In this document: positions 4,958 through 62,760 of the stretch, piece after piece
How positions within the stretch are numbered: the first letter of the stretch is position 1
Layout of the letters: every line of letters starts with the position of its first letter
Assembly (NCBI RefSeq): GCF_036588685.1
Contig: NC_086386.1
Coordinates: 9,052,001-9,116,000 of the forward strand
Length of the DNA: 64,000 bases
DNA from: Mytilus trossulus
Lineage: Eukaryota
Direction of reading: 5' to 3'
The notes under the pieces: generated by a model
Told to the model about the DNA's origin: nothing
Seen by the model: only the letters and a program-made list of their open reading frames with translations
Database searches by the model: none
Program-made: the position numbers and the translations under genes

Positions 4958-5146
4958 GGCTTTTCTACCTCAGACATAGATTACCTTAGCTGTATTTTGG
5001 CAATACTTTTGGGAATTTTAGTCCTCAATGCTCATCAACTTAGTATTTTATTTGGCCTTTTTAACTTTTTTGGATTCGAGCGTCACTGATGAGTCTTTTG
5101 GTCTGGTGTCTATACTTAATTTGATTCTGGTATCTGTGATGAGTTA
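4958..5146 (+). repeat. Partial copy of the 334-nt hammerhead repeat family; ribozyme deleted internally
   Basis: Matches about 50094-50270. gagcgtcaCTGATGAgtcttttg joins directly to gtctggtgt, with the GAAA/stem III segment missing. Confidence 0.7.
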
Positions 5147-24079: not shown

Positions 24080-25650
24080 ATCAAATTTCTAAATGGGCAT
24101 TTAAAAAGTCAGAATGTGAATATATATGTTCAGACTCTTTAAGGTCATTTTTAGTAGCAATAAACAAAAAGACTATGTCAATTGGACATGCTTTGATACT
24201 ATATATGCCCTTGAATTTTTACTAGATAACATTTTTGTTCGCTTTGGGGATTCCGTTTATCGTCAGGTTATCGGAATTCCAATGGGGACTAACTGTGCAC
24301 CACTTATTGTGGACTTGTTTTTGCATTGCTATGAATTACAATTTATGACAAAAATAAGCAAAGACCCATCGAAACCACATCTGATACACAAATTTAAAAA
24401 TACTTTTAGACATTTGGATAATATTTTGGCTCTCAATAATGACGACTTCAGTATGTATATTAAAGAAATTTATCCTGTTGAACTTACTTTGAATAAAGCT
24501 AATTCTAATAATGACCACTGCCCATTCCTCGATCTTGATATCTATATCACTAACGGAAAGCTGAATACTAAAATTTATGATAAAAGAGATGATTTTTCAT
24601 TTCCTATCGTTAATTATCCATATGTAAATGGTGCCGTTCACTTGTCACCATCTTACGGTGTTTATTGTATGTAGCAATGTTTTAGATTTTAACGAGAGAA
24701 ATTTATGTATCACTGAAAAATTATTGTTGTCAGGTCATTAAAGATTGCATATTTTGGCGTAAATATTGATTCACTTATAGGGTCTTTGCGTCGGAACTAA
24801 ACACATTTATTTAAAAACCAGCTGTTGGAATGAAACGGGTTATTGTCTTCTCATATATGTTTTCATGGTATGAAATTAAACCCCTAACGGGAATTATTGT
24901 GCCTGATGCTTATATGATGAAATCATAATCTTTCAGTCAGTTTAATTGAAGTCTGGAGTTGGCATGTCAGTTAACTGCTAATAATCTGTTGTTATTTAAG
25001 TATTATTGTCATTTTGTTTATTTTCTTTGGTTTCTTCTTCTGACATCAGACCCGGACTTCTCCTGAACTGAATTTTAATGTGCGTATTGTTATGCGTTTA
25101 CTTTTCTACATTGGCTAGAGGTATAGGGGAGGGGCTGATACTGTGGATTCATTTATTTTCGTGGGTATCAATTTTCGTGGATTGAAGAAAACTTACATGT
25201 TCGTGGATATTTGATTTCGCGGTTTTGCCGGAGTCTGCATACAAGCCTATTGAAAATTTGTCATTCGTTGAACATTTAATTTCGTGGTTCAACTCTTCGC
25301 ACGAAATACACGAAAATTGGTATCCAACGAATAATAATGAATCCACAGTATCTCACAAACATGTTTAACCCCGCCGCATTTTTGCGCCTGTTCCAAGTCA
25401 GAAGCCTCTGGCCTTTGTTAGTTTTGTATTATTTTAATTTTAGTTTCTTGTGTACAATTTGGAAATTAGTATGGCGTTCATTATCACTGAACTAGTATAT
25501 ATTTGTTTAGGGGCCAGCTGAAGGACGCCTCAGGGTGCGGGAATTTCTCGCGACATTGAATACCAGTTGGTGACCTTCTGTTGTTGTTTTTTTTCTACGG
25601 TTGGGTTGTTGTCTATTTGACACATTCCCCATTTCCATCCTCAATTTCAT
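24080..25650 (+). mobile_element. 5'-truncated Penelope-like element: RT fragment plus 3' non-coding region (possibly Naiad/Chlamys type)
   Basis: ORF 24126-24674: FLLDNIFVRFG..YRQVIGIPMGTNCAPLIVDLFL..FRHLDNI (degenerate YxDD)..FLDL..KIYDKRDDFSF; no GIY-YIG follows; ends ...acattccccatttccatcctcaattt. Confidence 0.75.
25141..25348. mobile_element. TA-TSD MITE
   Basis: TA|CTGTGGATTCATT..TTCGTGG ... CACGAAAATTGGTATCCAACGAAT..TGAATCCACAG|TA; absent from the sister copy at about 29283. Confidence 0.85.
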
Positions 25651-33079: not shown

Positions 33080-33980
33080 ATGTTGGCATATCAATTGTAT
33101 GGTTTGTTACTTGTTTAGACTAGTCTGTATGATAAACTTGTGTCTAGTGACTATATAATGAAATTAATCATGATCCCATATAATATATAAACATGGTTGA
33201 GTTAGATTGCTGACAAATAAAATATACATTGTGTATAAAAAATACTATTATAACATCTACATAGGCTTAAAAAAAACACGTGTCTCATGTCTAGATTAGC
33301 CTTCCGTGACAAGGTAGCACTACGACTATTGAAGTTATATTTTCATATAGTGGATGTTGTCAAGTGGTCTAGAGCGCTGGACATGAGGCTAAGCGATTGG
33401 TGCTGTAGTTTATCAAAGGTGTGAGTTCGAATCCCGTCGAGGGACGGACACAAATTTATCAGTAGAAAATCTAACACTTACAATGTTTGATGTAATTTTT
33501 AGACTTATATAATATCTGTATTAACCATGTATCTCAATCACTCTGAAATCCAGTGGGCATATATATTGTATGGGTTGTCACTTGTTTAGACTTGTTTGTA
33601 TGATATACTAATTTCTAGTGACTTTATAATGAAATGAATCATGATCCCATAGGATATATAAAAATGGTTGAGTTAGATTACTGACAAATGAAAAATACAT
33701 TATGTATAAAGATAATAATATAACATCAACACACGCTTAAAAACATGTGTCTCATGTCTATCTCTAGATTAGCCTTCCGTTACAAGGTAACACTACGACT
33801 ATTGAAGTTATATTTTAATATAGCGGATGTGGTCGAGTGGTCTAGAGCGCTGCACATGATGCTAAGCGATTGGTGCTGTAGTGTATTAAAGGTGTGAGTT
33901 CGAATCCCGCTGTGGGACGAATAAAAATTTGTCAGTAGAAAATCTAACTCTAACACTGTTTGGTGTAATTTTCAGACTTA
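33080..33980 (+). repeat. Two ~473-bp tandem units, each with a tRNA-like Pol III A/B-box segment, ending in (TA)n
   Basis: tctagagcgc at 33368 and 33841; A-box TGGTCGAGTGG (about 33830), B-box GAGTTCGAATCC (about 33424 and 33896); both units end agacttatata. Confidence 0.75.
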
Positions 33981-33999
33981 TATATATATATATATATAT

Positions 34000-35669
34000 A
34001 TATAAATGTCTAAGAATATAACTTAAACACGCTAATTAATACAATAAGTTCTATTAGATACTAGATAGAAATACGCAATATTTCGCTTAATAATTTAGCT
34101 TCATTAGGCGTGTGCATCTCTCAAGGTGAAATCGAATGCATGACAAAAAATATTTTTGTAGCTTAATCTTCTTGTTCTTGTCTACGTATGAAGCTCCTTT
34201 AAATAGGAGCACCACCATGAGTTATGACGTATAAAGGAGGACATTTGGAGCCTGTATCGGTAACGATTAATGTGAGCATTTGCCTACCCCATTCCCCAGC
34301 CAGGCCGTGACGTGCCTTATTAACAGAAAGTTAACCTTTACCCAAACAAAGTACAATGCAATCAGATAAAACATACTAAACTCACACACTCACCTGATTC
34401 GCTCAGTCCTCAAAGTGTAAAAAAAGTGCAAAACTATATACATAAAATGAAACAAGGTCACCCCGGATGCCCCACAAATGCCGTGGCAAAATACGCTAAG
34501 GTAGTAACGAGGAATCGGTTAGGACACTGCCAAATGCCCTGCTGTATCAATGGTAGAGGAAAGCCGGAAATCCGACTGAAAAGGATTTGGAAAGAAAATA
34601 GTAAAAACACACAAAAATACTGAACTGAAGCAAAAGAAAAAGACCGAACAAACCTACTTGAATTTGAATACAAAGAAAAGACGGCCCATATAAATAAAAT
34701 CCCGTTTGTTGTTAGCTTTCATCCTGACCTGACAAATCTTTCATCAATTTCCACAAACACTGGCGTCTTATTGAAAATTATCCTTCCTTAAAAGAGAATT
34801 TTTCATCACCTCCCGTTATTGGGTACCGCAGACCCAAAAACCTGAAAGATATTCTAGTAACATCAAAAGTTCTAAACAGGCTATCAACAATCTGAGGTTA
34901 TAAACCATGCCGAAGGTGCAATTGTAAGTGCTGCAAAGTCGTCAACATCGGAACCCGATTCGTTAACAGTCACACAGAAAAAATACAACATATTTATAAC
35001 ATACAATTACAAAACGCAAAATTGAATTATGTTCTAACGTGTGGGACTTGCAAATTACAATATTTTGGTGAAACAGAAACACCATTTAACATCCGACTTA
35101 ATAACCACCGGTCATTTTTTACAAAAGAAAGAAACTGCCCAATTACAAGACAACTTTTAAGATCAGGACATGATTTTGAAAACGTCAAATTTCAAATCAT
35201 TGAGAAAAATCAAAATTGGGATACACAAAGAAGGCCAAAGAGATAGAGATTTTGGATGCACCAGTTACGAACTATTGAACCTGATGGACTCAATGTGAGT
35301 GACGAATAAAGGTTTAAAAGCAAATCAAAACCATAATTATCTTGAAATCAAACAAATTAATTTATAGAAATTCATACAATTTATCGAACATTTATAAATG
35401 TGTTAAACTTATATTCCAACTTTATGTACTTGTAGCAACACACATATTTTATGCAACATCAATAAATATGTTACAGTTTTCCTCAAATCTTGTATAGCTT
35501 AAGCTACAAAAATATTTTTTGTCATGCATCCGATTTCACCTTGAGAGATGTTCACGCCTGATGAAGTTGATTTGTTTAGCGAAATATTGTGTATTTCTAT
35601 AACAAATCTAATAGAACTTTTTAATGTATTAATTAGCGTGTTTAAGTTATATTCTTAGACATTTATATA
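34000..35669 (+). mobile_element. Penelope-like element (Neptune-like) with inverted pseudo-LTRs; RT mostly deleted
   Basis: 34000-34166 is the reverse complement of 35499-35669. Internal 34620-35300: PFVVSFHP..PPVIGYRRPKNLKDILV..C-x2-C/C-x2-C linker..YVLTCGTCKLQYFGET..RLNNHRS..FWMHQLRTIEPDGLN (GIY-YIG). Confidence 0.85.
35554..35592 (+). ncRNA. Minimal type I hammerhead in the pseudo-LTR (mutated mirror copy at 34073-34111, minus strand)
   Basis: acgc CTGATGA a gttga tttgt ttagc GAAA ta TT gtgt: stem I acgc/gtgt, stem II with G-U pairs, very short palindromic stem III. Confidence 0.6.
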
Positions 35670-35752
35670 ATTTTAATTCAGTATTTATTTTCACAAACTG
35701 ATCCTCGTTTAAATGGATTGAATGGTGATTGTTGCTATTTTTATACATTATA

Positions 35753-35958
35753 GGGTTAAAGAACATCAGCTGTTCCACATGTTAGTCAAACGTATTTTGT
35801 TTTAATATACTTTTTCACTTTTTTGGTCTTTTTGAAAATGTTGTTTGTGCTGTATCTAAACCCTTCTACAGCGAAATTTGTTTTACATGCACACGTATAA
35901 AAATTGCGGTTTTTATCCAACGCAATTATAGGTTTGAACGTAGTTTTCAATTTAGACT
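35753..35958 (+). repeat. Fragment of the 574-nt hammerhead repeat family
   Basis: Reverse complement of about 47103-47307. Confidence 0.75.
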
Positions 35959-35980
35959 TACATATATATTATATATATAT

Positions 35981-37760
35981 ACAATTCGGATAACAGATAT
36001 CCTTCTTCGGTAATAGCACGACGTAAAATAAATCATGTCAAATTATTCAAATTAAGACACTATCAAAATCTTGCACGTTTATACAATTTAAGCGGACTCC
36101 ACAGATGCTGGTGCAATTTTCAAATTTTCCAAACACGGCGCAAGGATTACAAAGATATGCCAAATACAAATAGTTATTTGCGATGTGAACTGGCACAACT
36201 CTAAATTTCCAAAGGTTTGAAAGTTTAGATGTGATAACTGCATGGAGGGCGGTCATCAAACAAAAAAATCAAAAATGCCCTAAGCGATACAAGTTGGTAT
36301 AATATTTCAAATTTGACAACGGTAGGGCAATTGCAACAGAAACTACATATTTAAGCCTCGCAAATAAATAGCAGTTTAACAATGATTAGAAAAATAAATT
36401 TCATCTAATAAGGTAAAAAATTGAATGTGGCCACGTACTTATACATCCATCACAAATGAATGGAGCCCTGAAATTTTAACTGGTAATATAAAAAAAATCT
36501 TCAAACTGTAAAGCCAGTACGGAAGCCGGAGTTACTGGAAACAAGTGATGACAATTTTTCATGTATGCCCTTTGGGGAAACTGTCCTTAACTTTCTTATC
36601 CAAAATCTTTCCCGAGCAACTCTGTCCACCTTTGACCAACCCTCGTTGTGGTCTATGATTGTGATGGTAATGTTTTTGAAATCAGCTTGCCCAGATGATC
36701 TCAAATGACGACATGCGGGTAGGTCGGGCTTACAAGTGTAGTCACTTCGATGACCATTCATGCGTTTGTTGAATGTCTGCTCTGTCTCGCCAACATATTG
36801 CATGCCACATCGACACTGAAGGAGGTATACAACATTCTGGGTTTTGCAAGTTACATTGCAAAATATAGTGTACACAGACCCAGTCGAGTGGCAAGTAAAT
36901 GTTTGAGTATTTAGGATTTGTTGACAAGTCAGACAACGTCTATTACCACATGACTTGCACCATCCTGCAGTTGAACAGCTTTTATTTGAGGAGACCTCAG
37001 CTCTTACAAAGAAGTCTTTCAGACTTGATGGTCTCCGAAAAGCTAAGCCAGGAGGATTGGGAAAGATCTTGGATAATTTAGGGTGTTTGGCAATAATAAT
37101 CAAACGTGAAAGGTTAGTAAAGGCTGGATTGTATGTTTCAACAAACATAGGGTGACAGCTTTGGTAGGAAAAGTACTGATATTTATCTGTGGGTTTACAG
37201 TAGAGGTCCGTTGATATACCACCGTCCTTTATAGATGTGGTTGTGTCTAAGAAAGATATTTTAGAGTCTTAAATTTCAAACGTAAATTTTAATTCAATGA
37301 TCGGCGTTGTTTGCATGTTTGAAATCATCCAGTTTTTTTGTTGGGATTCAATCCATTTCATGTCAACATCATCAATGAAACGGAACCAAGACAGAGGTTT
37401 AGATAAAGATTGCAATAATTTGTTTTTCTAATTGCCCATGAAAATATTGGCGTAAGACGGTGTCATTTTCGTCCCCATCGCTGTCCCGTTTAAACATTCA
37501 GTAGGTGGTTCTAAAATAGTGCGCGAGTCCCATATTTCCCTACAAGATTGTATGGATCTTTTTCATTTTTAGCCATGGCGTTGTCAGTTTGTTTAGATTC
37601 ATGAGTTTGACTGTCCCTTTGGTATCTTTCGTTTCTCTTTTGTATGCCGTCATTATGAGGTATTTTGGTATACAATGAGTTGACATCTAAAGTGACAAGG
37701 AGGGTTTCCGAAGAAAGAGGGTTCATGGATTCCATTTTACGAAGATAATCTGTAGTCTTC
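35981..37760 (-). mobile_element. Penelope-like element (Neptune-like), internally deleted
   Basis: RT pieces [49 protein letters not shown]; GIY-YIG ORF 36501-37148; 3' region ends in a hammerhead remnant next to (TA)n at about 35962-35981. Confidence 0.85.
36501..37148 (-). CDS. PLE Cys-rich linker plus GIY-YIG endonuclease (fragment)
   Basis: AFRRPSSLKDFFV, CKSCGNRRCLTC, NVVYLLQCRCGMQYVGET, RMNGHRS, RERFWIRKLRTVSPKG. Confidence 0.8.
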   Translation of the reverse strand: MFVETYNPAFTNLSRLIIIAKHPKLSKIFPNPPGLAFRRPSSLKDFFVRAEVSSNKSCSTAGWCKSCGNRRCLTCQQILNTQTFTCHSTGSVYTIFCNVTCKTQNVVYLLQCRCGMQYVGETEQTFNKRMNGHRSDYTCKPDLPACRHLRSSGQADFKNITITIIDHNEGWSKVDRVARERFWIRKLRTVSPKGIHEKLSSLVSSNSGFRTGFTV

Positions 37761-38884: not shown

Positions 38885-41546
38885 ATTTTGTAATTTATTT
38901 TTATTTCATCTGAAAATACACCAAGTATATACTGTGAAACATAATTATATAGTTAATTCATAATACATATATTGATATTACATTTTTCAATAACAGTCTA
39001 AAATTAAAAAGTTAGTTATGCTAATTGTTCTAAATTTTATACTCGATTATACACATCCTTTATCACTCTGGATTAGAATACCTGAAAATGCTGATAAGGT
39101 TAATGATTGAATCAGCCTTTCCCTCTAGCTACATGCATCACAGCCTACACAATGATGTTGAACATGAGAGGTACAAGGAGAGGCCACCAGAGATCATTAA
39201 TAGATAACATGTTGGACAACATGTTGGACAGAGTCACATATTAACTGTTAACCTAAGTCAAGGGGAGATAATTCAAATACAATCAAACAAACACTTGTAT
39301 ATCAATAAACATATAACAATAGCAATAAACATAGATAGTACTTTTAAGATGCACACAAATCACTGTCCAGTTGTGATGTGCATCAACATATTATTAATTC
39401 TACATAAAGCCTTAAGTAAGTACAATATAGAAAGATCTCTCCTCACATGTGAACTAAGTTTTTAATTACTTCCCATTTAGTATCAACTTTCTCTCTTACT
39501 CTAGGGGATCTGTAAAAGGAGGTAGATATTTTTTCTATTTGGTAGGAATTTTTAATCATATCTATGACACCTGTGAGAGTCGGTAATGAAGTATTAAAGA
39601 GACATGTATCGACATGTATAAATGTAATATTTAACCAGAGTAGTGAATAAGTTGAGGGAAATATCCCAAGACTCTGACCCAAGAACAATATTTTCCACAT
39701 TAAGAATTAAGTTAAATTATTTTCAACTAGAAAAAGTACTGCAATTTCTAACCACAAATTTCTAACTAGGGTACATTCCCAGAATAGGTGACTTATAGTT
39801 TCTTTAGTTTCATTACAGGAACTACATAAGTTAGTTTCTTTAGTTTCATTACAGGAACTACATAAGTTAGTTTCTTTTAACCCATATTTCTGCAATAAAG
39901 CATTAGTAGCGAGAGTTCTATGTAAAATCTTTAACTGGAACATACTAAATTTGTTGTTTTTAGTGCCTCAAAACGGTAAACTATAAATGAAATCCCAGTT
40001 TTCTATGAATGCCATTTTGACTTCTTGTTTTGTAGGACGTTCTGTATATATTGACAAGAATTTTTTATAAAAGAACTGACATGACTTTTTATTGTTTTTT
40101 TATAAATTCAAATTTATCGTTAGATATGTGCGTAATTTTCTCTGAGGTAGTGAAAAAAAATTCCAGTCTTTTGGTATCATATGCAGCAAAGAATGGTATT
40201 CCAAGAAATTAATATTAGAATTATATTTTTCGCAGAATTCTTTAAAAGTAAAACAATTACTGTTTTCATCAAGTAAATCATCTATAAAAAAAAACTCCTG
40301 ATTCAACCCACCTCTGGTAAAAGACAGTTTTATTATTAATTTTCAAACTGTTGTTTAGCCATATGGATTGTTTCATAATCCCTTCAGCAGTGCAATTAGT
40401 GACAGTGTTTATGATATTCCAGTTTAGTCAATTATCTTTCCAGAAATTATCAAAATTTGAAGAAATCTTTTGGATACCATCAGGGGTTATCAACCATATT
40501 GTGTCTGCTCCTAATCTGTTGTATTGATCTATTAACAATGTTTTCTATGGGCATATATTCAAGGAGTCTAAAAGTTTATTTATCCATGTCATCTTTAATG
40601 AATAATTAAAGGATCTTACATCTGGCATTATCAAAACCCCATTTTTAAATAACCCTATCATAAATTTTCTTTTAACCTTGTCTGGTTTTCCTGAACACAA
40701 GAACTAAACAAAATATTTTGAATTTCTTTTTAATTTATCATCAGGCGGGTTTGGCAAAACTGTCAATGATTGAATTAGAATAGGTATAGCTAGTGATTTA
40801 ATGACAGTGAGTTTTCCCATATATGTTAAATCTCTATAAACCCAGGAATTTAGCAGGCTCTGTATTTGTTTTTTATTTTTTCTTCAAATTTTACAAGTGT
40901 TTTATTTTCCCTGAACAGATTTTATTCCTAAAAGTTTAAATTTTCCTGAATGATTCCAGTTCAAATTTCTTGCAGTTGTTAGTTTATCCCTTGAGTGAAT
41001 CTTTGACCCAATCCATATGGTTTCAGTTTTATCAAAATAAGCCCTATGTCCCGCACACTCAGAAAGTTTGTCTAAAGTATATAAACATTTTTCTAAAGAT
41101 TGCTCATCCTCGTTTAATAAAAGACATGAGTCATCTGCATACTGGCTTAGTAGATACTCAGAATCATTTATTTTCAGACCATTTTTGTCTTGGTTATTTT
41201 TAAGTGCAGCACTCATAAGTTCTAAGGATAATATAAAGAGATATGGAGATAGAGGATCACCTTGTCTAACACCCCGACCAATATTAAAAAATTGAAAGCA
41301 ATGTCCAGAATTTTTAATACAGCTTTAAGATTCTGAATATAAGGTCTTGACCCATCTACAAAAAATAGGACCAAATCCTAGAAAAGACCAAGCCAAGTCT
41401 ATAAATGACCACTCAATAGTATCAAAAGCTTTCTCAAAGTCTAATAAAAGTAAAAGACCTGGTAGATTATCATCTGCCTTTTCCATAATGTCAAAAATAA
41501 GCCTGGTACATTCTCCAATATACCCTCCTTTTATGAAACCTTGCTT
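38885..41546 (-). mobile_element. 5'-truncated Tx1/L1-type LINE (decayed ORF2)
   Basis: QGFIKGGYIGECTRLIFD, LLLLDFEKAFD, GVRQGDPLSPYLF, SQYADD, zf-RVT FQLKILHR..C..C..HLFWEC; AATAAA near the 3' end at about 38895-38906. Confidence 0.85.
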
Positions 41547-41895: not shown

Positions 41896-42593
41896 GGCCA
41901 CTTTATAAGAACTTTCCGTTTTGAATTTTCCTCCTAGTTCGGTATTTTTAAAATTTTACCTGTTTTATATAGACAGGTTATAGGATTTTCATGGAAGAAA
42001 ACACATAGGGTCAGCTGACATTTATAAACGTCTCGTTTTCAATTTTTTTACATATATATTTAAAAACAACTGTGGGTATGAAATGTACTGTAAAAACACT
42101 TCAATATATGTAGTGATTTATTTTAGGCTATGATTCTAATAAATAAATTGACAAGTGTTTTTTCAAGATTTTTTTATTCAAATAAATGGTATTATAGGGT
42201 GCACTTTGTAAAATACAGCTGTTTTACAAACCACCCATCTTTTGAGGAGATAAATATACATTCATATACTTGTGTACCAACTGGTTCCAAGGTATGTTCC
42301 TTGGAATGTTCCTTTTGATAGAATAAAAAACTTGAGAATGTAAAATGCATAAAAATACGTAAGTAGCGGCCATATTGAAAATAATGAAAGACTCAAATAA
42401 GGTGAGGTATAGTACATAATTTTAGTATAAGCTTAAACTAATATAATTTCTAGGCATACCATTGTTGAAAATATGCCGCAAAGCACTATCTCGTTACCTT
42501 TCAAAAAATAGTAGTAAATATAAGTTTTCTATTTTATCATAAATTTCTACGGCACTTCATAGTAAAAAATATAATACAGTACCATGTTTGCTG

Positions 42594-42636
42594 CACCAGA
42601 TGCGTATTTCGACAATCTGTGGCTTTTCAGTGATGC
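42594..42636 (-). ncRNA. Degenerate hammerhead related to the 46888 type
   Basis: Reverse complement gcatcaCTGAAAAgccacagattgtcGAAAtacgcATCtggtgc; stem I intact, core and stem II mutated. Confidence 0.5.
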
Positions 42637-43319
42637 AAAATATTTGAAAATCCGAAGCTTATTAAAAGAATAAAGAGCTGTAAACCAAAACAGGATATGC
42701 AATTATAGACAAATCCGGGGAAGGAATTGGAGCTTTGCATAAGGGAGATACATTCCTTAGTTTTCAATAACTTAAAAAACTTTAAACAGCAAACTTTGAT
42801 ACTAGTAACACAAAATCCGTATTTTCATGTCAGGGAGAAGTATTGGCTACTGGTAGGAAGATACCAACTGGGACAATCAAAGAGGTGCAGTTTTTGTCGT
42901 TAAAGGGGGTTCTTTGAATTGTTTATATAAACAGAAGTGAAACCTATTAGAAGTAAAGTCTTTATTGGAGAAATACATTTCATCTCTGTGTTCAATGGAA
43001 AACCACATTTTAGTTTGATAGTAGTACCATGTATAGATGTATTTATACTTTTATACATGTTGAAAAAATCAATACAACATTTTGTGTTGATCCGTGAAAT
43101 CCTTTAATTAATAAAATATACAAATCATTTTAAAATACCTTTCAATTGCAGTAAACCTAAACAGTATTTTTCAAATTGTATTCTGTTGGTTTTTTTTATA
43201 TTCAGATGTACAAATATTTTATGGAAGCATTCACCGCCTGTCAAAAACGATTCCCCATCGTGTTTGAAATGCCTTTTTGTGTACATATACTATATGAGCA
43301 CCTTACAAAGTTCATTCGT

Positions 43320-43635: not shown

Positions 43636-45034
43636 ATTTGCTATCCACTACTTACATTTTTTATTCACGTATTTTCAACAAACAACATCAATTACAAAAA
43701 CTTTTGTTATCGTATTTGTTGGATTTGTTTAGTCAGGTTTTTTTTGTCTGTGGTGTATGTTAACACAGTTTTGGTTGCTGGATCCAAGGTATTGTCATAT
43801 TAACCTGTTATTACTGTTTGAATATATCACTCAATTCTGGGAATATAACGAAACTACAAACAACTTTCGGAAACGTGGCAGTTTACGCTAGCTATAAAAC
43901 AAGGTATAATCCCCAATTTTCGTTTATTTTACTAGTTCTGTTGGTTGATAACGTTTGGTCTCGACGATCGATATTTTATGATCTTTTCCTTTTGTTTTAA
44001 TTTACCATAGAGTTCAGTAAGTTTTATATATTTTTTGGTCACTAGACGCACGAATATAAACAACTAACATGTTGGTTTTGTTTTTCATTTTCTCAATATG
44101 TAGTTCATTTATAAGCGATGAGTTGATGTGAGTGATCTTATGAACTGATGCGTAGAAAAGATTTACAGATTATGAAAAATAGTATCAACTTAAGCTATGA
44201 CATCAAAACACTGCGGCTAATCGAGGAAATGAGATAAAGTAAACCAAGTAATCAATTAAATGAATAATTAGCCTCACAGACAAATATTGTATGTTATAAT
44301 CAATTTTTGCAAAATTAGTTACCAAGACGAAAGGCACTTGAGCCCTTTTCGATTCGTTGATAGTTGAAAAGGGAAAAAGAAAACGGGTTTTACACATTAT
44401 TATATATTGCATACTTATGAAATCATTAAAAAGAAGATGTGGTATGAGCGCCAATGAGGTAACTTTACATCCAAGTCACGAAGGTAAAAAGTAAACAACT
44501 GTATTTCAAAGTACGACCTTCTTCAACATTGAAATCTGGCTCACACTGACATCGTATGGGTCCATACATGATTGAAACACCGGGTTATCAAACCTCTTAC
44601 GACAATGGCATCGACATGTTTGTTTTAAAAACTCATTCTAGATACCAGGCTTATAGTTTATTACTTCAGACGTGTTTTTTGTTTCCATAAGACTTATCAA
44701 TGAAGCTTGAATCAACAGTGACCTGAAACTTTTGAATGTTACCCCTATTCTTTTACATATACTCCTCTAAATCTGTTTGTATTATTTAACTGTGAGGTGT
44801 TTTAGATTTTAAATTTGCTCATAATCTTGTTGTGTACGACAAGGTTACCGGGTATATTTCAGCTAAATTGCATGTCGTTTCCGATTACTACAATGAACTA
44901 TGCTTTTTATCATGCTTATTTTTATATTTTATAATTGACTATGAAAACATTTCCGTTTCTTAACACATTACATATTTTTATGTCGGACATCTGTACAACA
45001 GGTCGTTTCAATGAACGAGATTTTCTCATTCGAT

Positions 45035-45866
45035 ACAGATTAATTAACACTTTTTGTTACAATACTTTTCAGCGAAATCATCTACATACGGAATAACTTT
45101 TCTGAAAAATGAAACGTCCTACTTAGATTTAAAGGAAATGTTAACAACGCTTATAAAATATCTAAGTATAGTTACAAAATACAGAATTTTATTGAACCCT
45201 TTTTGCATAACATATTTTGTTGATCGATTTAATGTTCATGTCATCTATTTGAAGGTCATAATCCACCATAAACGAACACAGATACAAATATTTATTCATT
45301 ACCTGTCTTATGTTATTCGATCTGTATTTTTACTACAGTATCTACGATGTCTTATTATGACATTAAGTGTTTTAATTTAGAATTATTTCAATGAGAAACC
45401 CAGCTCGAAAGATTTTTTTTTTTGTATCCTTCAGATCTATTGTATTAGCAAAATAAGACATTTACATGGGCCTCTGTCTCTAACTTGTATAAATCAAATG
45501 AATTTTTTTTAAGGCAGACTTCATACAAGAGTTTTACAGATTAATTAACACTTTTTGTTACAATACTTTTCAGCGAAATCATCTACATACGGAAATACTT
45601 TTCTGAAAAATGAAACGTCCTACTTAGATTTAAAGGAAATGTTAACAACGCTTATAAAATATCTAAGTATGGTTACAAAATACAGAATTTTATTGAACCC
45701 TTTTTGCATAACATATTTTGTTGATCGATTTAATGTTCATGTCATCTATTTGAAGGTCATAATCCACCATAAACGAACACAGATACAAATATGTATTCAT
45801 TACCTGCCTTATGTTATTCGATCTGTATTTTTACTTCATTTAAGGCACACTTCATACAAGAGTTTT
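45035..45866. repeat. Recent tandem duplication (501-bp period; second unit internally deleted)
   Basis: Near-identical text starting at 45035 and 45536; this explains the twin spurious ORFs at 45054 and 45555. Confidence 0.85.
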
Positions 45867-46009
45867 CCATAGACAAAATTAAACTACTTTTTACCGTCAG
45901 CTGACTGTGTATTTAACTTCACTAAATTTGTTATTTTTTGGTAGTGATGTCAATCGTATCCATCTAATTAATCGTGGAATAAAGGATATTATAGATACAG
46001 TTTAGTGAT

Positions 46010-46300
46010 ATTTAAATATTATACATCTAGCCAGTACGATAGGGGGTTGTTAAATAAGCTAATCTTTACAACAAAACATACTGTGAACTTTACATCTGAA
46101 TATATCAACATTGTAGAAGCACCTCCATATGGACTATACATACCAGTTGAAAGCATATACCAGGGATTTGTTTGCTGCCGAGATTTTTTATTATGATGCA
46201 GAATTAATTTTACAAAGAATCTATACACATAAGAGTTCCAAATGAAAGTTATTTTGTCAAGTCGCACGTTTCACAGACGACTTCATGATTTTGTTCACCG
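46010..46300 (+). pseudogene. Highly decayed PLE RT C-terminal remnant
   Basis: VNFTSEYINIVEAPPYGLYI..DFL resembles the VNYPY..SPSYGVY segment of the 24126 RT. Confidence 0.35.
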
Positions 46301-46619
46301 TAATAAAAAAAGTTATGTAATATATGGCAACGAGCTCTTTCCTCGTTTGGAACATGAACGAATGCACATTTTCATTTTTTTTCCTGGCAACTGGATTCGC
46401 GATAGGTGAGACTACATGAGCAAAACCTTTTTTTCGATTCATCGTGTTTTATGTCCCGATGAAGTCTGTCAATTGAGAGAATAAGCATCTCTTGCAGCTA
46501 CATTCCTGTTGACTTAATCATCAACCCTTCTACTAAAGTAATTTGAATTTAACTAGTAAAATATATTTCACCGCTAGAGATGTCATACCTCAGCTTTGAT
46601 ACTTAACAAGCATATATAT

Positions 46620-47473
46620 ATTTGTAGAAGTGTCTTAAACAGCACAAACAACATTTTACAAAAAAAAAACAAAAAAGTGAAAAAGTATATTTAAACAAAA
46701 CGCATTTGACTAACAGGTCGAACAACTGATGTTCTTTAACCCTGCTGCTGACTGCCGTTGGCGATTGCCAAATAAAATTGATCACCAGATGTTATAAAAT
46801 GGATCTTAATATAAATTTAATTCTAAACAGAAAACAAACTTTTACTTGTGGCCACGATGTTATGCCACGGTGTCAATATTTTTTAGTACACCAGATCCGG
46901 ATTTCGACAATAAATGTCTCTTCAGTGATGTTAGGGATCGAAACGGTATTTGGAAGGCCATATAAAAAGTACCCTCATATTTAGGAAAAGTACCCTCATA
47001 TTTAGATCCTGACTCTTGAATTTAAAGAGTCAATATAAGATGAACGGATCCTATAAACCGGAGGGAAAATATGATACAAGCCCAAACGAAAAAATATAAA
47101 TGAGTCTTAATTGAAAACTACGTTCAAACCTGTGATTGCGTTGGATAAAAACCGCCATTTTTATACGTGTTCATGTAAAACAAATTTCGTTGTAGATGTC
47201 TAAAAACATCTAAAACAACATTTTCTAAAAGACCAAAAGAGTGAAAAGGTATATTTAAACAAAACGCATATGACTAACAGGTCGAAAAACTGATGTTCCT
47301 TAACCCTGCTGACCGCCATTGGCGATTGCCAAATAAAATTGATCACAAGATGTAACAAATTAAAATGGATCTTAATATAAATTTAATACTAAACAGCAAC
47401 AAATTTTAACTTGTCACCACGATGTTATGCCAAAAACATACGGTGTCAATATTTCTTTAGTACACCAGATCCG
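46620..47473 (-). mobile_element. Retrozyme-like repeat, about 1.5 units of a 574-nt monomer
   Basis: tacaccagatccg recurs at 46887 and 47461; about 46650-46899 is duplicated at about 47215-47473; an intact hammerhead lies at the unit junction. Confidence 0.75.
46888..46931 (-). ncRNA. Intact minimal type I hammerhead ribozyme
   Basis: Reverse complement ACATCA CTGAAGA GACA tttat TGTC GAAA TCCGG ATC TGGTGT: 6-bp stem I, full core, 4-bp stem II, palindromic stem III ATCCGGAT, AUC cleavage triplet. Confidence 0.85.
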
Positions 47474-48914
47474 TAATAATACACAAGCATGAGAGAAAAG
47501 CAAAACAGAAAGACATGAGTATAAACCCTAGACACACTTAAACATTAGGTCTTCTTTTTGAAAATCATGAGTTGGGTCACCATATTTGAAAATTTATAAG
47601 CCTATACACATATTGGAAAAAACGTTAAAAAGCAAAACCAAAAGTAAACCAAATCCCGAAAAAAGGAAGTAAAGCTATAGACGAAGGATAAATGGTATTC
47701 ATAATTTCACAACAGTTCATTTTGATAAAACAACACCCGAATACTCATGTAAGTGCATTCAACAGGACCAGATAAATGGATGTAATAGTCTCATGCATGA
47801 AGTTCAGTCCGACGACAGAGATATCGATCCAGGGGAAATAACATTAACGGTACAAACTCAATCTTCTCTTTTTCTCAAATGTGACTTACCGAATTATACT
47901 TATCAACGAGTTTATACTTACATGAGCAACATGTGAAGCATGATCAGCTTATCCTTCTAGCGCACGGTTGGGTTCATATTGCACAGTCTAAAGGAGTGTT
48001 TTTGTGTTGTTTGTTTTTCGATCGTTTTTCGTTTTTCTAGGCGTTAACAGTTGAATTAATGAGTGAATGTCCATTCAGTATCGTTCGCCTCTCTTTTATG
48101 AGTATATATGATGAGTGTATTTCATTTATAATAAGCATTATTACAAAAGTGTTTTTCCAGCATGTACAGTTATATAAGAAATTCAAAAATTGAAAGCTTT
48201 GCGTTGATAGCCGTTAAAAAGGGGGTCATTAATGAACCCAAACCCGGTTTCAACTGCCTTCTTTTCCTCTATATAATATCATGTAATGCGAATTGTAATA
48301 TAGATTAGTTATAGAAGAGTATCACTACCAGGCAATTATTGTTTTGTTTTCTTAAACTTGAATATTAAGTGATTTCTTGACTGTTGTAAACTAAATAAAT
48401 CTTAGTTTTTCTATTTCTTTTTTTTTTGTTCTCATCTACTTGTTGTTTGTGTTTTGGTGCCTCGTTATTTCGTCCCTTTTATATTTAAAAAATAAAATCA
48501 TGAAAGTTTATAAATTTACCTGTGACGTCATTCTGTTACGTTGATGCAGTCGTATGACAGAAAGTTCGTGGTTCTATTGTGCTGCTTTTGTGTGCTTTCC
48601 TATGTTGTTTTACGTGTTTGTTTTTATTCTGTGGTTAGCATGTCGAAGTCAACTGTTTATTTGCGTATTTCTCTGTCCTGAATGTTCTTGCATATATTTG
48701 TACTGTAAACCTTTCATGTAATGTTGTCATTTTATTGTTACATTTAATTATTATGTTTATTATTACGCCTTATATAACACTACAACTACTATACGTGCTT
48801 TATATGACAATTAAGACAAACGTACACGCGTTCGAACACACACGAAACTATAGAGTTAATAATAAACTAAAACATGTTTAAAAGCATACAACATCAAATC
48901 AACTATAAAAAGTT

Positions 48915-49881: not shown

Positions 49882-50290
49882 TTGATGAGTCTTATGTAGA
49901 CGAAACGCGCGTCTGGCGTACTTAATTATAATCCTGGTACCTTTGATAACCATTTACCTCACTTGGTCGATGCCACTGCTGGCGGACGTTTCGTCCCCGA
50001 GGGTATCACCAGCCAAGTAGTGTTACGAATATCAATAATGTGGTCATTTTAATCAATTTACTGTTCCAAACTTTGAATTTTTGGAAAAACTAAGGATTTT
50101 CTTATCCCAGGCATAGGTTACCTTAGCCGTATTTGGTACAACTTTTTGGAATTTTCCTCAATACTCTTCAACTTTGTACTTGTTTGGCTTTATAAATATT
50201 TTGATATGAGCGTCACTGATGACTCTTATGTAGACGAAACGCGCGTCTGGCGTACTAAATTATAATCCTGGTACCTTTGCTAACTATTAT
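49882..50290 (+). mobile_element. Retrozyme-like repeat: one 334-nt monomer bounded by two hammerheads
   Basis: TGATGAgtcttatgtagacGAAAcgcgcGTCtggcgta at 49883-49920 and gcgtcaCTGATGActcttatgtagacGAAAcgcgcGTCtggcgt at 50210-50253; GTC sites end at 49913 and 50247. Confidence 0.85.
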
Positions 50291-54384: not shown

Positions 54385-57300
54385 TAAGTCAAAACACACC
54401 TACAACTTGGTGCTCAAAAATGGTGGTAACCAGCAAGGATGATGGCACTCCAATGCGTACAGTAGACCTACAACCACAAAATCCACATTCTGTTCGGCAA
54501 TCACATCATGTCCCAACTCCTTTCATCTGGCTGATCGTGTCTCTCAATGTATAATAAAACAGTGACAGACGCTTGGACTGGGTACCACTCAGTGCTTATT
54601 TGTGAAGAAGATCGCCATTTCACAACATTCATCACACCATGGGGGCGCTTCAGGTACAAGGTTGCTCCACAGGGATTCATGGCCAGCGGTGACTCTTACA
54701 ATCAACGATTTGATGCTATAATGTCATCTTTCAGCGACAAGGTTAAATGTGTGGATCACACATGTATGTGGACGAACTCTATTGAAGCAGCATTTTTTTC
54801 AGACATGTGAATGACTCGACCTGTATGCTCGTAAAAGCATTACATTAAACCCAAAAAAGTTTTAATTTGCTCTAGACACTGTCAATTTTTGAAAAGAATT
54901 ACAATCACCCTAACAAAATACCACCAAGTACTAAGTTCCTAGATTTTATTTGCAACTTCCCAACACCAACTGACATTACTGATGTAAGAGCTGGGTTTGT
55001 GCTTATAAACCAGCGAGCATATGCATTTTACATGGCAAGACAAATGAAACCTTTTCGTGCTCTATTGAAACTGTCCACAACATTCTGCTGGACAAATGAA
55101 TTAGATGAAGTATTTCACAAATCCAAAGAGATCATTATTCAGGAGATGAAGGAAGGTGTTTGTCTTTTTTGACCATGCTCGTATGACATGCCTAGCTACC
55201 GACTGGTCTGTTGACGGAATTGGGTTTTTTTTATGCAGAAGAACTGTCAAAGCTAAAATAAAACCTAACTGCTGCAATTACGGTTGGAGACCATATCTAG
55301 TTGGCAGCAGATTCACACATCCAGCAGAAACCAGATATGCTCCTATTGAATGTGATGCCTTGGCCGTTGTGTATGCACTTCACCAAACACGCTACTATGT
55401 TCTTGGTTTCAAAGACCTTCTTGTTGCAACTGACCACAGGCCACTACTCCAGATTCTGAACGATCGATCACTCACAGACATCGACAACAGACGACTTCTC
55501 AATCTCAAAGAGAACACTTTAGGGTACAGGTTCACAATTCTTCATGTACCAGGCAGAAAGAACCTTGGGCCAGATGCAGCGTCACGATATCCTGTTGGAC
55601 CACCAGATCGCCTGAAATTACTTGGTGAAGCACCTGAATTTGATTCCCTAGTTCAAATGATACACTTACCAGTCTATGTCTACATACAATAATAAAGATA
55701 CAGCTAATGACGCCTTCACAGTTACTGCTGCCACATGTGCCTTGAATGCTGTTATCACAGTTGTTACTTGGAGCATAGTTCGTGAGGCCACTGCATCAGA
55801 CCCTACATTTTTAAATCTCATCAGGCACCTGGAATCATGATTCCCAGAAGACTACAAGGAGCTACCAACAGACTTGTGTCCTTATCATCGCTTTGCATCT
55901 AGTTTATGCACCGTGGATGATATAGTTCTTATGGGCCAACGAATTCTTATACCTCCAGCTCTTTGCAAACCAGTACTCAGCGCTTTACACGCAGCCCACC
56001 AAAGAGTCAGCGCTATGCGTGCGAGGGCCATGGACTCTGTATATTGGCCTGAGATCACAGTATATATTGGCCGGGTGAGAGACCAGTGTGTTTACTGCCA
56101 TCAGATGGCCAAGTCAAACCCTCTGCAGCCACCATCTGTCATAACACCTCCAGATTATCCATTCCAGATGATTTGCAGTGACTATTAGTACTTCAAATAT
56201 AACAGTAATGTTATGTAGTTATTGTTCAAAGGTATTCCAAGTGGCCAACGTCTAAATCAGGTACAGAAGGACTTGACAAGAGACATCGTGAGACGTTCGT
56301 GATATTTGTTATCCCAGAAGAGTTGACGTCTGATGGAGGTCCACAGTTCACAGCAGGGAAACTCAAACGTTTTTAAAGGTCTGGGGAGTTCGTAAAAGAT
56401 TTTCGTCAGTTGCAAACCCACACGCTAACTACAGGGCTGAGATAGCGGTAAAAACAGTAAAACGCATGGTGGTGGACAACATCACTGCTGTTGAATCTCT
56501 GAATGTTGACAAATTCCAGAGCTTTACTGATGTACAGAAATTCGATTGACCCAGAGACAAAAGCATCACCGGCATGATTATGTTTGGACGACCCATTCGT
56601 GATGCCATTCCCATACTGATGGGTAGATATTCTCCGTACGAAACATGGACTGAGTTAATGTCTTACTGAGAGATGGCTCTTGCCAAACGTCATTCAAGGG
56701 AACATGAACGCTGGAATGAACACACTCATCACCTGCCAACACAACAGGTTGGAGATCATGTATACATACAAAACGTGGTATGCAACCATCCCAGGAGATG
56801 GGAACGTACAGGAACAAGTGTTGAAGTACGCCAATACCACAGGTATGTTATACGTGTGGATCGCACAGGCCGGGTAAATATCCGCAACCGCCAACACCTT
56901 CGAAAGTTCACTCCTTTTCAAACCAACCAAACACAAGGTACGTTGATGGCACCTACTGCAGTTCAACATCAAGAAGTAATCTTGAGCTCTCCAACTACAT
57001 CCAAGACGACACAGCCACAAGTGCCCAAGATTCCAGTGTTTTTATCACCAAAAAAATATTAAGTCAACCAGCTGCATTGAATGAGACACCAAGTATAGTC
57101 CCCGCTCATAAACAGGCGACTTAGACAATTCAACAGCCTACACAAATAGATTTGGACCAGACATTCCACCACACCCCTGAACCAGATGTACCTACTATGT
57201 CTAAGATACCACGTGCTCTATCACGTTTTCAGCCACACAATACAGCTGGAGAAAAGGAACTATTGACACTACGAAGACCGAGGCGCCGCAACACAACAGA

Positions 57301-57556: not shown

Positions 57557-60500
57557 TGTTACAGTAAATAGGTGAAATTAGGAATTACAAGTAATCACTG
57601 AACAGTTCAGTAAATACCTGTAATTCCTAGCCAATTTAGTTATTACATGTATTTACTGATTGTTTCAGGTATTACAGGTAATCACTGATTTTTTTTGTTA
57701 TTTTTTCAGCTATTTACTGACTGTCAAATTTAAGACATAAATCGAGAAATCAAATACGAAAGTAAAAAAGATAGGCGAGATTATGGCTTACTTTAGGGTA
57801 AATGAATCAAATATCATTTAATATTGCATGTGTTAACTTATAGTTTGTGAATTGTAACAAGAGAATGGCTGTGTTATAATTTTGAAAACTAGCTGATAAT
57901 AATATTTAATTTATTTTGAAACATGCAAATTATTGGTGAAACCCATGACATGGCAATGTTTTATACACAAATTATATGAACCAAAAATACACATTTCATC
58001 ATTTAACATAGAACATGTAGAACTAATACCTATTTATATAATGAATGAAAGTTACTTGTTATGGCATGACAAACTGTTATGACATCTAGAGTTGCATAAA
58101 ACGTTAGATTTGACACATTTGCAGGTCTTTCTTACACAACCTGTCTTACATGCACACTTTAGGAATCCCTGTCCATCCCCGATTGACTGTTGCCGTGCTG
58201 CTTCCCTTACATTTAACTCTACAAGGGTATTTGCATCTTGCAAAGCTAACGAATGAATTGGTGAAAAAATAAATTGATTCCTCGAGTAAGATCCATTTAA
58301 AATTCCGTCCTTTGAGCCGAGTTTGAATTGGTCATTTGTCTGATCATGTTCCAAAACTATGCACAAAAGATTTCTCGGATCTCCACGCCCCCTATCGACA
58401 CTAGGAATGGGAACAGTAACGTTATCACCAACTTGTACAGGTCTCAAAATTTGATTGCTTCGAGCAACCATCTTTTCGGCTTGCTTTGACAAGTTTGAGC
58501 CACTGACATGACGTTCCCGTTGAATGCATTCCGAACGGACACATATGTCGCAACAGATCTGTAATATTGAATCAGTCTGAAAAAATGCAGAGCATTTGTT
58601 GCATTCACGTTCATATTGTAAACATTGCACCTCATTCAGAGTTTCATCATCTACAGAGTTACTTTGAGGTACTATGATGTCCAGTAGTGCAGCTTCGAAA
58701 TAGGAGCTCTGTTGGCTATCCTGAGTTTCGAAGATTGGTTGCCTATCAGACGTGTCAGATATTTCAGAGGTTGGTTGACTATCAGGTAATGAACTATTCA
58801 CCACGCGTATAGCACTGATTTGATTAACTGATGTTACAAGCTGATAATCTTGAGCAACCAAATCCTCATTATTGCTTTGAGAAACTAGACCATGATGTCT
58901 GGTTGTCATCTCAAAATTCAAATCCTCTTCTTGCTGCAGAGTCTGTAGCAATTCAGTTGGTATTGGAGAAGACGCTAGGCCAACCTTTGGTGGACAACCA
59001 AACATTGCCTCGTAGGGTGAACGTTTGATTCCAGAGTGATTACGGCGATTTTTCTGAAACTGCACAAATTTAATTCCAGTTGCCCATTTTGTAGTTTTGT
59101 TGTCTCTCATCCAACTCACTAGCATGTCATGTACATCTCCATTGGACCTTTCTACACTGCCTTGGGATTGAGGATGACGTGGTTTTCCATGTACTATTAC
59201 CAATTCAGGCCATAACTGCTTCAGTTCGAGAATGCTGTTAGCTGTAAATTCCCTGCCATTGTCACTCTGCAAAATGTGAGGAGCTCCAAATACAAGAAAT
59301 ACATTTGTAAGAAGTTTATATGCAACTTCAGCAGCTCTTTTTGACGACAGACTTTCAATTACACCAAATTTTGTTAAATGATCTTGATAGTTCATAATAA
59401 ATTTAAGTCTCCATCAGGCATACTCTGCATATCAATGAGATCAACTTGCCCTCGAGAGTTAAACTCTTTTGACAAAATAGGTTTCACTACGACCCCTTTT
59501 GCTGGATTTTTCCGTCGAAGCTGACATTCTTCACACATAGATTTGTATAGATTTATGGCGCTAAGTGTCACGTTTGCATATTTTTTGTTCAGTTCCTTCT
59601 GCATCTTATCTCTACCAGCATGGTTGAGTGCACTGTGGGATTTCTTAATAACATCAAATGTCTCTTCAAGTGAGACGAAGTACAGAATAGGATCTTCTTC
59701 TGTTTTTCTCTTTCTTATCAGTTTTTCCAGACCTGCAATCTGCAGCACTTCATACCTGCAAGAAATTGTAATACAAGTATAAAAGTAAGGAGATGTGGGA
59801 TGAGTGCTAATGTAACACCTATGCATCAAAGTTAAAATTAAGTAGATGTAATTATTATGTTAATCAACCGTTGTTGCCTTCGACAATGAAGACAAAAAAA
59901 CACAGCAGCAGTCATTTTAAATGGGAAGTACCCATGCAGTAGATTATAAATTTGATTTGAACCACCGACCTTCAATAGGAAAAAATGCCAATATAAAACA
60001 ATGATATAAGTTATATTAAAACCTGGCAAGAAAACGTACACCCCCCTTTAAATTAAATGGTCTTTCTCTAAAGGATTAAAATACATTGATATGTGTATTT
60101 AGTGTTTTAGGGGCTACACAGAAATGTCATGAAAAAAAATCACTTACCTTGAGAGCAGATTGTAATCATCTCTTGTCCTTTTTATTGTTTCACTTTCACA
60201 TAAAATGTTGAATCTGCTAATTATGATGTTAAGTTTCTCCTTTGGCATTAAAACCCTATCACATTTTTCATTGTACATTTTTAATAACTCCTCTGTAAAT
60301 ATTTTTTCTTTCTCATTAGCCATTTTCAACAAATATGTTTAACCTTGTCACTATATATCTGCATATATGTTTTTAGTTTAACATCAAAATATATTATAGA
60401 ATGATCACTTTTAAATAGTACTCACTGACCTTCTATTCAGAATAACCTAAACTTTTGACCAGCTGACCATATTACTACATTGTTTTAACAGTTAGTAAAT

Positions 60501-60726: not shown

Positions 60727-62760
60727 GCATTCGACCTGGGTCCAAAACGTCCAACTTCAATTTGAAGCTTATGAGCAGAAATACGTAATTTGCATATAGA
60801 TCTTCTAAAATCAAAGTCCTTAATTAAAGAAAGATCATTTTCATAACCAAAATTCTGTTTTAATTTCACATAATTAAACAGTTTCCATCAGAAGATTTAT
60901 TTTGGCTAGCATACCAATTGCTAATATATTTAGTGTGAATTAATTTGCTAGATATGTTCAAAATTTTATATTGTCCGAAATGTTTTACTTCTTTGTCCGA
61001 AATGTTTTACTTCTTGTTTAATTTCAAAAACTTCTAATACTTTTTTAGCAAATGAGAACCAAGAAGTTATGTTAGATTTGTGAAGCTCTTGGCTGCATTT
61101 TAAGCATCTTTCAATAGACTGAATTCAGTTGTAAGATTTTCAAATCTATACCAGTATTTTACAATTGACTTTACAATATCACAATGTAAGGGGAAACGCC
61201 CCAGTTCTGATAATACAGCAAAATTGACACTCCTTTTGTGTACCCCAAGTATAAATTTAGAAAATTTAAGATGGAGATTCTCACACTTAAGACTTTTAAA
61301 AATATTTTCAATATTGAATAAGGAAGACTGTAATTCATAACAAGAAACATTATAACCTCCCCATACCTCTGAATTATATAACAGAATGGGTTTAAGGGTA
61401 TGATAAAAAAAAATATGAACACAACATTTTATTCAGGAGACAAATTGATAAAATCCTTTCTAAGTTTATAGTAGACCTTAAGAGCCTTATTATAAAGTTA
61501 TTTAGCTAGATGAAAACTTCCAGATGCAGTAAAGTGAACACCTAAATATTTTTAATGAGTGACACAGTCAATCAAGTTATTCTGCAGTCGAAGATTCGCC
61601 TGAATTTTCCTTCCAGCCTTATTAAAAATTATGACTTTAGTCTTTTTAATATTTACTTTCAGGCACCAGTCAGCACAATATTTTTCTAGCTAATCAAGTC
61701 TACTTTGAAGCCCTGTGGCTGATGTTGACATAATCACAATATCATCCGCATACTTTAAACAAATTAATTTCTCTGAGTGCAGGGAAACTGCATCCAGACA
61801 GGAGTCAAGATAAGATGGGAAGTCATTAATTTTTACAAATTTTAAATAATGAAGGACTCAAGTTGTCTCCTTGTCTTACACCTAATTGAATGCTAAAAGG
61901 GTCAGTGAGAGAAGCTCCAACTCTTACACATGCTTGACTATTGTTATACATATCTGATATAATATAATAAAATAAAGTACCAACTTTCATATTAATTAGC
62001 TTCAGTTTAAGACCTATATGAATTACACTGTCGAATGCTTTGCAAAAGTCTACAAAACAAGTATATAATCTACCCTCTTTACTGTGACAGTATTTGTCTA
62101 TCAGTGTTTTTAAAATAAATATATGATCTGAAGTTCTGGCATTTTTTGTAAAGCCAATATGAGAATTATGAATTAAGTTGTTTTGGTACAAAAGTTTGTC
62201 AAGTCTTGTATTCAAAATATTTTTAAAAATAAAACCATCAGCCCAAATCTTTGGGTACACACTATTCTTGAGGCACAAATTAAATAATTTATATAAGCAA
62301 CCTATCAAATATGACTGACTATATTTTAACATTTCATTTGAAATCAAATCAGGTCCACAGGCCTTGCATGATTTTAAGCTCGCAATAGAATCGGAAATTT
62401 CTTTTTTACTAATACCATTATCTAAATCATTTAAAACTAAAAAAAAATCTTTGTCATTCATTGTCAGGATCATTTACAACTGGTTAAGTCGTGAATAAAA
62501 TGTGTTATCCATTGCAGAGTGAAGATTACGAAAGTGATTGGCCCATGTATCAGAATCAATTTGTGAAGAGCAGTTTTCTTTTTTGCTATCCCGGGCTGAA
62601 TGTCATTTATTAATTTCCAATACTGCTTATGGTTTTCAACTCTAAGAGTATCAAGTTTTTGTAGCATGGAATAGATAAATTAATTTTGCTTATATTTAAC
62701 TTTTCTACATTTATTATAGATTCTAAAATATTTATAGTATCTGCCTTTAATAACAGCTAG
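60727..62760 (-). mobile_element. Decayed non-LTR retrotransposon ORF2 (RTE-X-like or CR1-like)
   Basis: KACGPDLISNEMLK, FVDFCKAFDSV, GVRQGDNLSPSLF, YADD (about 61740-61752), YLGV, CKLRISAHKLQIEVGR. Confidence 0.8.

Follow-up and report, generated by a model that had tools for sequence, protein, structure and literature searches.

A 570-bp hammerhead retrozyme family with a fixed insertion end at (TA)n microsatellites in Mytilus trossulus

A 64,000-nucleotide stretch of the Mytilus trossulus genome (contig NC_086386.1, positions 9,052,001 to 9,116,000 of the forward strand; hereafter the window, numbered from its first letter) carries a hammerhead ribozyme at the junction of a tandem unit, which raises the question of what kind of element this is and by which route its copies enter DNA. 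The original prediction, made from the letters of the window, was a second retrozyme family with an unusually long unit and a minimal hammerhead that cleaves as a dimer.

The window copy and its ribozyme

The insertion, its parts and a further fragment of the same family are placed as follows.

46622 to 47473, minus strand: decayed insertion, some 1.5 units long, that belongs to the 570-bp retrozyme family (by alignment; best other copies 92% identical)
46894 to 47467, minus strand: predicted 574-nt monomer, from AUC cut site to AUC cut site (sequence and self-alignment)
46888 to 46931, minus strand: intact type I hammerhead, predicted to cut between 46894 and 46893
46895 to 46902, minus strand: stem III palindrome of 8 nt, predicted to form the intermolecular helix in a double hammerhead
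47462 to 47473, minus strand: partial upstream ribozyme, its 3' half, with the cut triplet, the 3' arm of stem I and some of stem III but without the catalytic core
47094 to 47112, minus strand: internal copy of the family's fixed 3' end, the predicted priming site
46965 to 47005, no strand: 21-bp tandem duplication whose copy number differs between units
46612 to 46621, no strand: (TA)5 run at the shortened 3' end of the window copy
35752 to 35970, plus strand: 5'-truncated copy that reaches the fixed 3' end and then (TA)n, between two PLE remnants

Stems, core and AUC triplet of the hammerhead are all in place, as had been predicted: on the minus strand, stem I pairs 46931-46926 with 46893-46888 (6 bp, two of them G-U), the core CUGAAGA stands at 46925, and stem II (4 bp), GAAA, the palindrome (46902-46895) and the AUC triplet complete the motif. 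It was the sole match of a hammerhead scan of both strands of the 64-kb window, and the Rfam scan that had been called for returned 0 matches at the gathering score. The label 'minimal' did not survive, since helix III of the family's hammerhead has 2 bp and a palindromic loop, the 'canonical' metazoan type I in the terms of PMC4209133; neither the lack of helix III nor the extra base between positions 9 and 10.1, by which the part of that source used here describes the 'min-HHR', was found.

The predicted cuts at 47468/47467 and 46894/46893 bear out the spacing of 574, and the insertion does begin at 47473, six bases ahead of the upstream cut site; the locus holds one complete ribozyme and the 3' half of a second. 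Because its two overlapping halves are only 84% identical in self-alignment, with gaps, the window copy is not young. Its 3' end is atypical, about 90 nt short of the family's usual one, and we rejected it as a second regular end of the kind found in PLEs (6 matches at 5 places, against 1402 junctions at the usual end). The further fragment announced at 35753-35958 is present, slightly longer, on the plus strand. As for the related ribozyme reported at 42594, a relative is indeed there, but it belongs to a decayed copy of a 350-bp sister family (75% identity) in which the core is broken and reads CUGAAAA. The window copy is an ordinary, old, partly decayed insertion, in surroundings with a low GC content, 0.34 (46001-48000).

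Elsewhere in the window, tandem duplications of 473 and 501 bp occupy 33085-33989, which ends at (TA)13, and 45034-45834; the hammerhead scan gave no match in either. Remnants at 12264-16773, 40902-41324, 55150-57062, 58052-59859 and 61100-62473 comprise a piggyBac-like transposase (PF13843), LINE RTs, LTR retrotransposon pol and an integrase-core gene.

A dispersed family of tandem non-coding units

Exact ribozyme matches with the window's palindrome (central CCGG) numbered 2911 in the 1.3-Gb genome, and those with central CTAG numbered 686; reversed-pattern controls for both counts gave 0 matches. The CTAG form marks a 551-bp subfamily of the 570-bp unit with the same 3' end. Genome-wide collection of units, which had been proposed as a check of the period, gave a median length of 570 (10-90% range 556-576; 211 units, some of which overlap between loci). 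Each unit carries a type I hammerhead, with the cut triplet AUC in 124 and AUA in 87, and units stand head-to-tail in arrays that have two or more complete ribozymes and reach 14 units or more. Units within an array were 98% identical in the median (38 arrays), those of different loci 93% (55 loci). Across five arrays, which lie on four contigs, the major units are 0-2 bases apart, which argues for recent mobility of the family, and in one array 12 of 14 units are identical. The longest ATG frame over a dimer encodes 78 aa in the sense and 63 aa in the antisense direction, and the unit is non-coding.

Genome-wide matches, arrays and frames agree with the prediction of a second, distinct, dispersed, tandem and non-coding retrozyme family, which by testable criteria is a new member of the non-LTR retrozymes. 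Growth in place without an RNA-type footprint, as for a satellite, was not what we found: the copies are dispersed and have a fixed 3' end with variable 5' truncation. Higher-order repeats of 2-4 units occur within some arrays (L144, L149, L050 and L042) and could come from multimeric circles or from local duplication. A deleted derivative with a period of about 199 bp (L089:3131-3540) retains the ribozyme and the fixed end.

The nearest published element is the 350-390-bp non-LTR retrozyme of Mytilus galloprovincialis (Cervera and de la Pena 2020, PMC7229834), which likewise consists of tandem non-coding units with a type I hammerhead and a short helix III; as that paper describes it, it differs from the present family, with its unit of about 570 and its fixed end about 365 nt past the cut at (TA)n. 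We infer that its ribozyme is a sister of ours. The 350-bp sister family of the present genome fits the published account of it. Two similar mussel ribozyme families appear in Fig. S4 of PMC7229834 and may include the 570-bp family. The family was absent from the literature titles and abstracts searched, a search outside which the supplement of PMC7229834 lies, and a term search of the supplements of PMC4918200 returned 375-nt as the only Mytilus unit label.

Vertebrate non-LTR retrozymes have been described as PLE derivatives of 51-972 bp (Li, Clavereau, Pollet 2026, 10.64898/2026.07.22.740005), and share with the mussel family the tandem type I hammerhead units and the co-occurrence with PLEs. 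The claim of a unit longer than known for animal retrozymes thus held against the 170-400 nt of PMC7229834 and failed against this wider range. In Xenopus, 24 of 57 families match known elements, nearly all of them PLE termini, whereas the 570-bp family is without clear pseudo-LTR homology; insertion ends and targets, mapped here, are not analysed in the portion of that work drawn on.

Cleavage, transcripts and insertion ends

The amplified palindrome centres are CCGG and CTAG in the 570-bp family and GCGC in the 350-bp family (4715 exact ribozyme matches in the genome), and single-change forms are rare (CTGG 28, CCAG 38), such that the whole stem III palindrome is kept in three amplified lineages. 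Because its inner pair is a loop in the monomer, the kept complementarity points to pairing between two copies, although the test amounts to about two independent changes and not thousands; judged on sequence, palindrome retention supports cleavage as a dimer. The double hammerhead was the minimum-energy two-strand fold (−25.7 kcal/mol), while the monomer ribozyme fold (−2.6 kcal/mol) was beaten by a non-catalytic fold at −8.8. The dimer-type ribozyme with palindromic stem III, as first proposed, is supported by the retained palindrome and the predicted two-strand fold. Compared with shuffles, there was no gain in fold stability for the ribozyme (z −0.59) or the monomer (z −0.42), and ribozyme columns were no better conserved than the middle of the unit. 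Of nine Xenopus retrozyme dimers, one is reported to cut in vitro (10.64898/2026.07.22.740005).

We also assessed transcription in four raw-read runs (X21-X24, two studies), whose species label may differ from that of the genome and which possibly come from a related species. Reads cover the 570-bp unit in all four. By first-mate strand, depth in unit-specific bins (L055 4771-4808) was 306-386 vs. 11-14 in X21 and 523-637 vs. 7-10 in X22, a bias of 25-80-fold that fell to about 3:1 in X23 and was slight in X24. The library orientation of these runs is uncalibrated; if it is the usual one, the RNA is the ribozyme strand. At least 282 (X21) and at least 438 (X22) intact reads run across the cut site, an observation equally compatible with circles, with uncut multimers and with an inactive ribozyme. 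Short reads look the same from a circle and a tandem transcript. Read joints that go back 568 were discarded as evidence of circles, since they only rejoin the arbitrary cut of the reference. Between L055 4880 and 4883, 4-6 nt before the cut, depth dropped from 900 to 687 in X21 and from 1009 to 686 in X22, where sister-family reads stayed level; no such drop was seen in X23 or X24. This may reflect cleaved 3' ends.

Insertion ends were mapped in 77 loci: the C1 list supplied 40, taken in its order, and the best-scoring arrays 37. Of the 110 segments with a closed 3' end, 68 shared one fixed end, which lies about 365 nt beyond the cut site, and (TA)n followed in 52 of these 68 vs. 3 of the 42 others. 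Genome-wide, 1402 exact junctions join the fixed end to (TA)n. The 5' ends were scattered round the unit: in these ribozyme- or score-picked loci, 2 of 66 came within 12 nt of a cut site, where 2.9 were expected. Since loci picked by ribozyme could miss copies that end at the cut site, we repeated the 5'-end count on loci picked by 3' end (60 of the first 79 listed, with loci already sampled or their neighbours left out), a sample that includes some segmental duplicates and in which a few 5' ends are alignment breaks. Of the 60, 38 end ahead of the first cut site and 22 extend past one or more; the distance from a closed 5' end to a cut site was 12 nt or less in 1 of 57 cases and 15 nt or less in 4. 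Any excess of 5' ends near cut sites is at most weak.

A 5' end near the cut site, taken from the window copy as a trait of the family, was therefore not borne out in either sample, and the scatter rules out, as a family rule, the idea that the 5' end marks a cleaved linear template. Because 5' ends scatter round the unit, it is probably by chance that the window copy starts at a cut site. Target-primed reverse transcription by PLEs, as described in PMC8557442, leaves copies with a fixed 3' end, random 5' truncation and a microsatellite as target, and by analogy the end pattern of the 570-bp family fits that process. Priming far from the cut together with copying through cut sites would need a circle or an uncut multimer as template. 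Head-to-head pairs were seen in 1 of the 77 loci, and one end is used. The family has been inserted into TA microsatellites well over a thousand times, likely by a borrowed PLE-type enzyme.

On the reading that we consider probable, the window holds an old copy of a transcribed, non-coding tandem retrozyme family. Its RNA is predicted to form a double hammerhead and thereby cleave itself, and the reverse transcriptase and endonuclease that copy it into (TA)n are likely those of a C-terminal-endonuclease (Neptune/Nematis-type) PLE. Tandem transcripts would pair two palindromes and be cut to monomers, which a host ligase may circularise, as published for the 350-390-nt mussel family. The PLE enzyme would nick (TA)n and prime at the AU-rich site, about 365 nt beyond the cut, rather than at the cut end itself. 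With a circle or an uncut multimer as template, copying would then continue past cut sites and stop at random, which would leave 5'-truncated monomers and arrays.

Among the alternatives, uncut linear multimer transcripts of existing arrays could themselves be the template, with rare ribozyme cutting and no circle. The many reads that span the cut site, the unstable monomer fold and the heterogeneous, higher-order arrays agree with this, as does the finding that 8 of 9 Xenopus dimers did not cut, but it accounts poorly for a palindrome kept in three lineages and for arrays of up to 14 near-identical units, and circles have been shown for the 350-390-nt mussel family (PMC7229834). We regard a template of this kind as unlikely.

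PLE helpers and the 350-bp sister family

Three more features of the window bear on the choice of enzyme.

36501 to 37756, minus strand: remnant of a family-1 C-terminal-endonuclease PLE, the candidate helper type
34627 to 35750, plus strand: remnant of a family-3 C-terminal-endonuclease PLE, whose end abuts the fragment at 35752
42560 to 42853, minus strand: decayed copy of the 350-bp sister retrozyme, with a broken ribozyme core

We sampled four PLE families, one of them a Naiad family. The genome contains young C-terminal-endonuclease PLEs: in family 1, copies outside the window keep an intact frame of 911 aa, which encodes DKG, RT, a linker zinc-finger-like motif and GIY-YIG, and form 3.5-kb tandems, features that, on sequence, fit the Neptune/Nematis type as PMC8557442 describes it. 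The C-terminal-endonuclease families 1-3 end at (TA)n and carry minimal ribozymes of their own. The 570-bp unit lay within 1.5 kb of 8 of 30 family-1 loci and 2 of 20 family-3 loci (the window's own included in each), and the co-location with family 1 is evidence that the two share a target but does not identify a helper. What speaks against a match is that families 1 and 3 each have two ends in use, with inverted pairs in family 1, whereas the retrozyme uses one end. The unit end and PLE tails resemble each other weakly (6 shuffle tests, p 0.007-0.29, with two registers scoring alike), a short AGAC/TGAC/AGGC motif shared by retrozyme and PLE ends was seen after the fact, and local alignment of the 570-bp unit to family 1 gave nothing beyond chance.

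As side observations, each of the 8 inverted pairs among 30 family-1 loci (L113-L139) has one arm ending at the first TA junction and its partner at the second, which lies 87 nt beyond, and the window's 33980-37756 is a (TA)n hot spot of nested elements that combines a family-3 PLE with an inverted end copy, a retrozyme fragment and a tail-to-tail family-1 PLE. A tRNA-like non-coding element (box A/B by eye) also sits at (TA)n sites (L048:4250-4545, L055:6975-7850 and the 3' flank of L060). It has two TA-abutting ends about 93 nt apart, as in PLE families 1 and 3, its tail resembles that of family 1 (shuffle p 0.002), and it is a candidate PLE-mobilised SINE; exact motifs did not find it in the window.

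The mussel family resembles Neptune/Nematis PLEs (Craig et al. 2021, PMC8557442) in its fixed 3' end, 5' truncation, tandems, (TA)n target and hammerhead within the repeat, and differs from them, as far as that account goes, in having no reading frame, a canonical ribozyme, one end and only rare inverted arms. Non-autonomous Chlamys elements (MRC1; PMC8557442) are likewise PLE-type and inserted in multicopy head-to-tail form, but in that description they have 3' sequence in common with their helpers and belong to a clade without canonical hammerheads. Return of animal retrozymes into DNA is put forward as a hypothesis in the discussion of PMC7229834, and their mobilisation is left open in the portion of 10.64898/2026.07.22.740005 cited here. 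The 570-bp family has a priming site mapped far from the cut and a target that is defined, its arrays are very young, and intact candidate helpers reside in the genome that carries it; with the 350-bp sister as control, helper choice and rolling-circle copying become testable.

A helper from a (TA)n-targeting Naiad, or from another PLE family outside the sampled set, appears improbable. It would sit well with (TA)n as a frequent Naiad target (PMC8557442), with the 28,344 Naiad candidates in the genome and with the failure to find firm homology to PLE families 1-3, but the one Naiad family examined, identified by its N-terminal GIY-YIG and DKA motif, ends at an AATTTTA motif, mostly without a TA run, which is the kind of end found in the 350-bp family and unlike that of the 570-bp family, and it is PLE family 1 beside which the 570-bp unit is co-located.

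That the current copies descend from the pseudo-LTR of an autonomous PLE, which became detached and was multiplied in place as satellite DNA, is very improbable and largely refuted: it follows an origin route proposed in 10.64898/2026.07.22.740005 and the higher-order repeats in some arrays could also come from local duplication, but no frame of a sampled PLE runs into the unit, unit sequence and not a PLE frame lies directly upstream of the ribozyme in 40 of 40 C1 loci, PLE frames match in 8 of the 77 loci and reach their own (TA)n end first in all 4 junctions read, and the arrays are dispersed with a common 3' end and differing 5' ends. The original prediction had named this as one of the findings that would overturn it. 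A lost PLE may be a more distant ancestor.

Alongside copying of the 570-bp family by Neptune/Nematis-type enzymes, the preferred reading, the sister family suggests a different helper for itself. The ribozymes of the two families are 87.5% identical over 48 nt, with no similarity elsewhere, and the 350-bp family ends 25-30 nt past the cut at a AATTTTATT-like motif, and 20 of 22 distinct loci lack (TA)n there. That one ribozyme occurs in two unrelated units with different types of end suggests a swap of the ribozyme or a switch of helper. Tentatively, and with somewhat less than even confidence, one ribozyme module may have moved between two otherwise unrelated RNA parasites, each built for a different PLE clade. 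In the 350-bp family the Naiad-type end would lie beside the ribozyme; in the 570-bp family the (TA)n end, of Neptune/Nematis type, would lie across the circle from it. If so, the ribozyme and the priming site could be separated and exchanged as modules, and the two families together would readily test how PLE enzymes select RNA circles and start copying on them.

More decayed pieces of the 350-bp family lie in the window at 49960-50250 and 4996-5093, both on the plus strand. The abundant Naiad, of which the window holds a remnant (24120-24674, plus strand), has an in-frame TGA eight residues past the DKA motif (L239:7077-7079, G000:C8), after which most top copies continue in the same 480-aa open frame. 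Selenocysteine is reported at that position in clam and spider Naiads (PMC8557442), and the element is, from its sequence, a candidate mussel selenoprotein Naiad.
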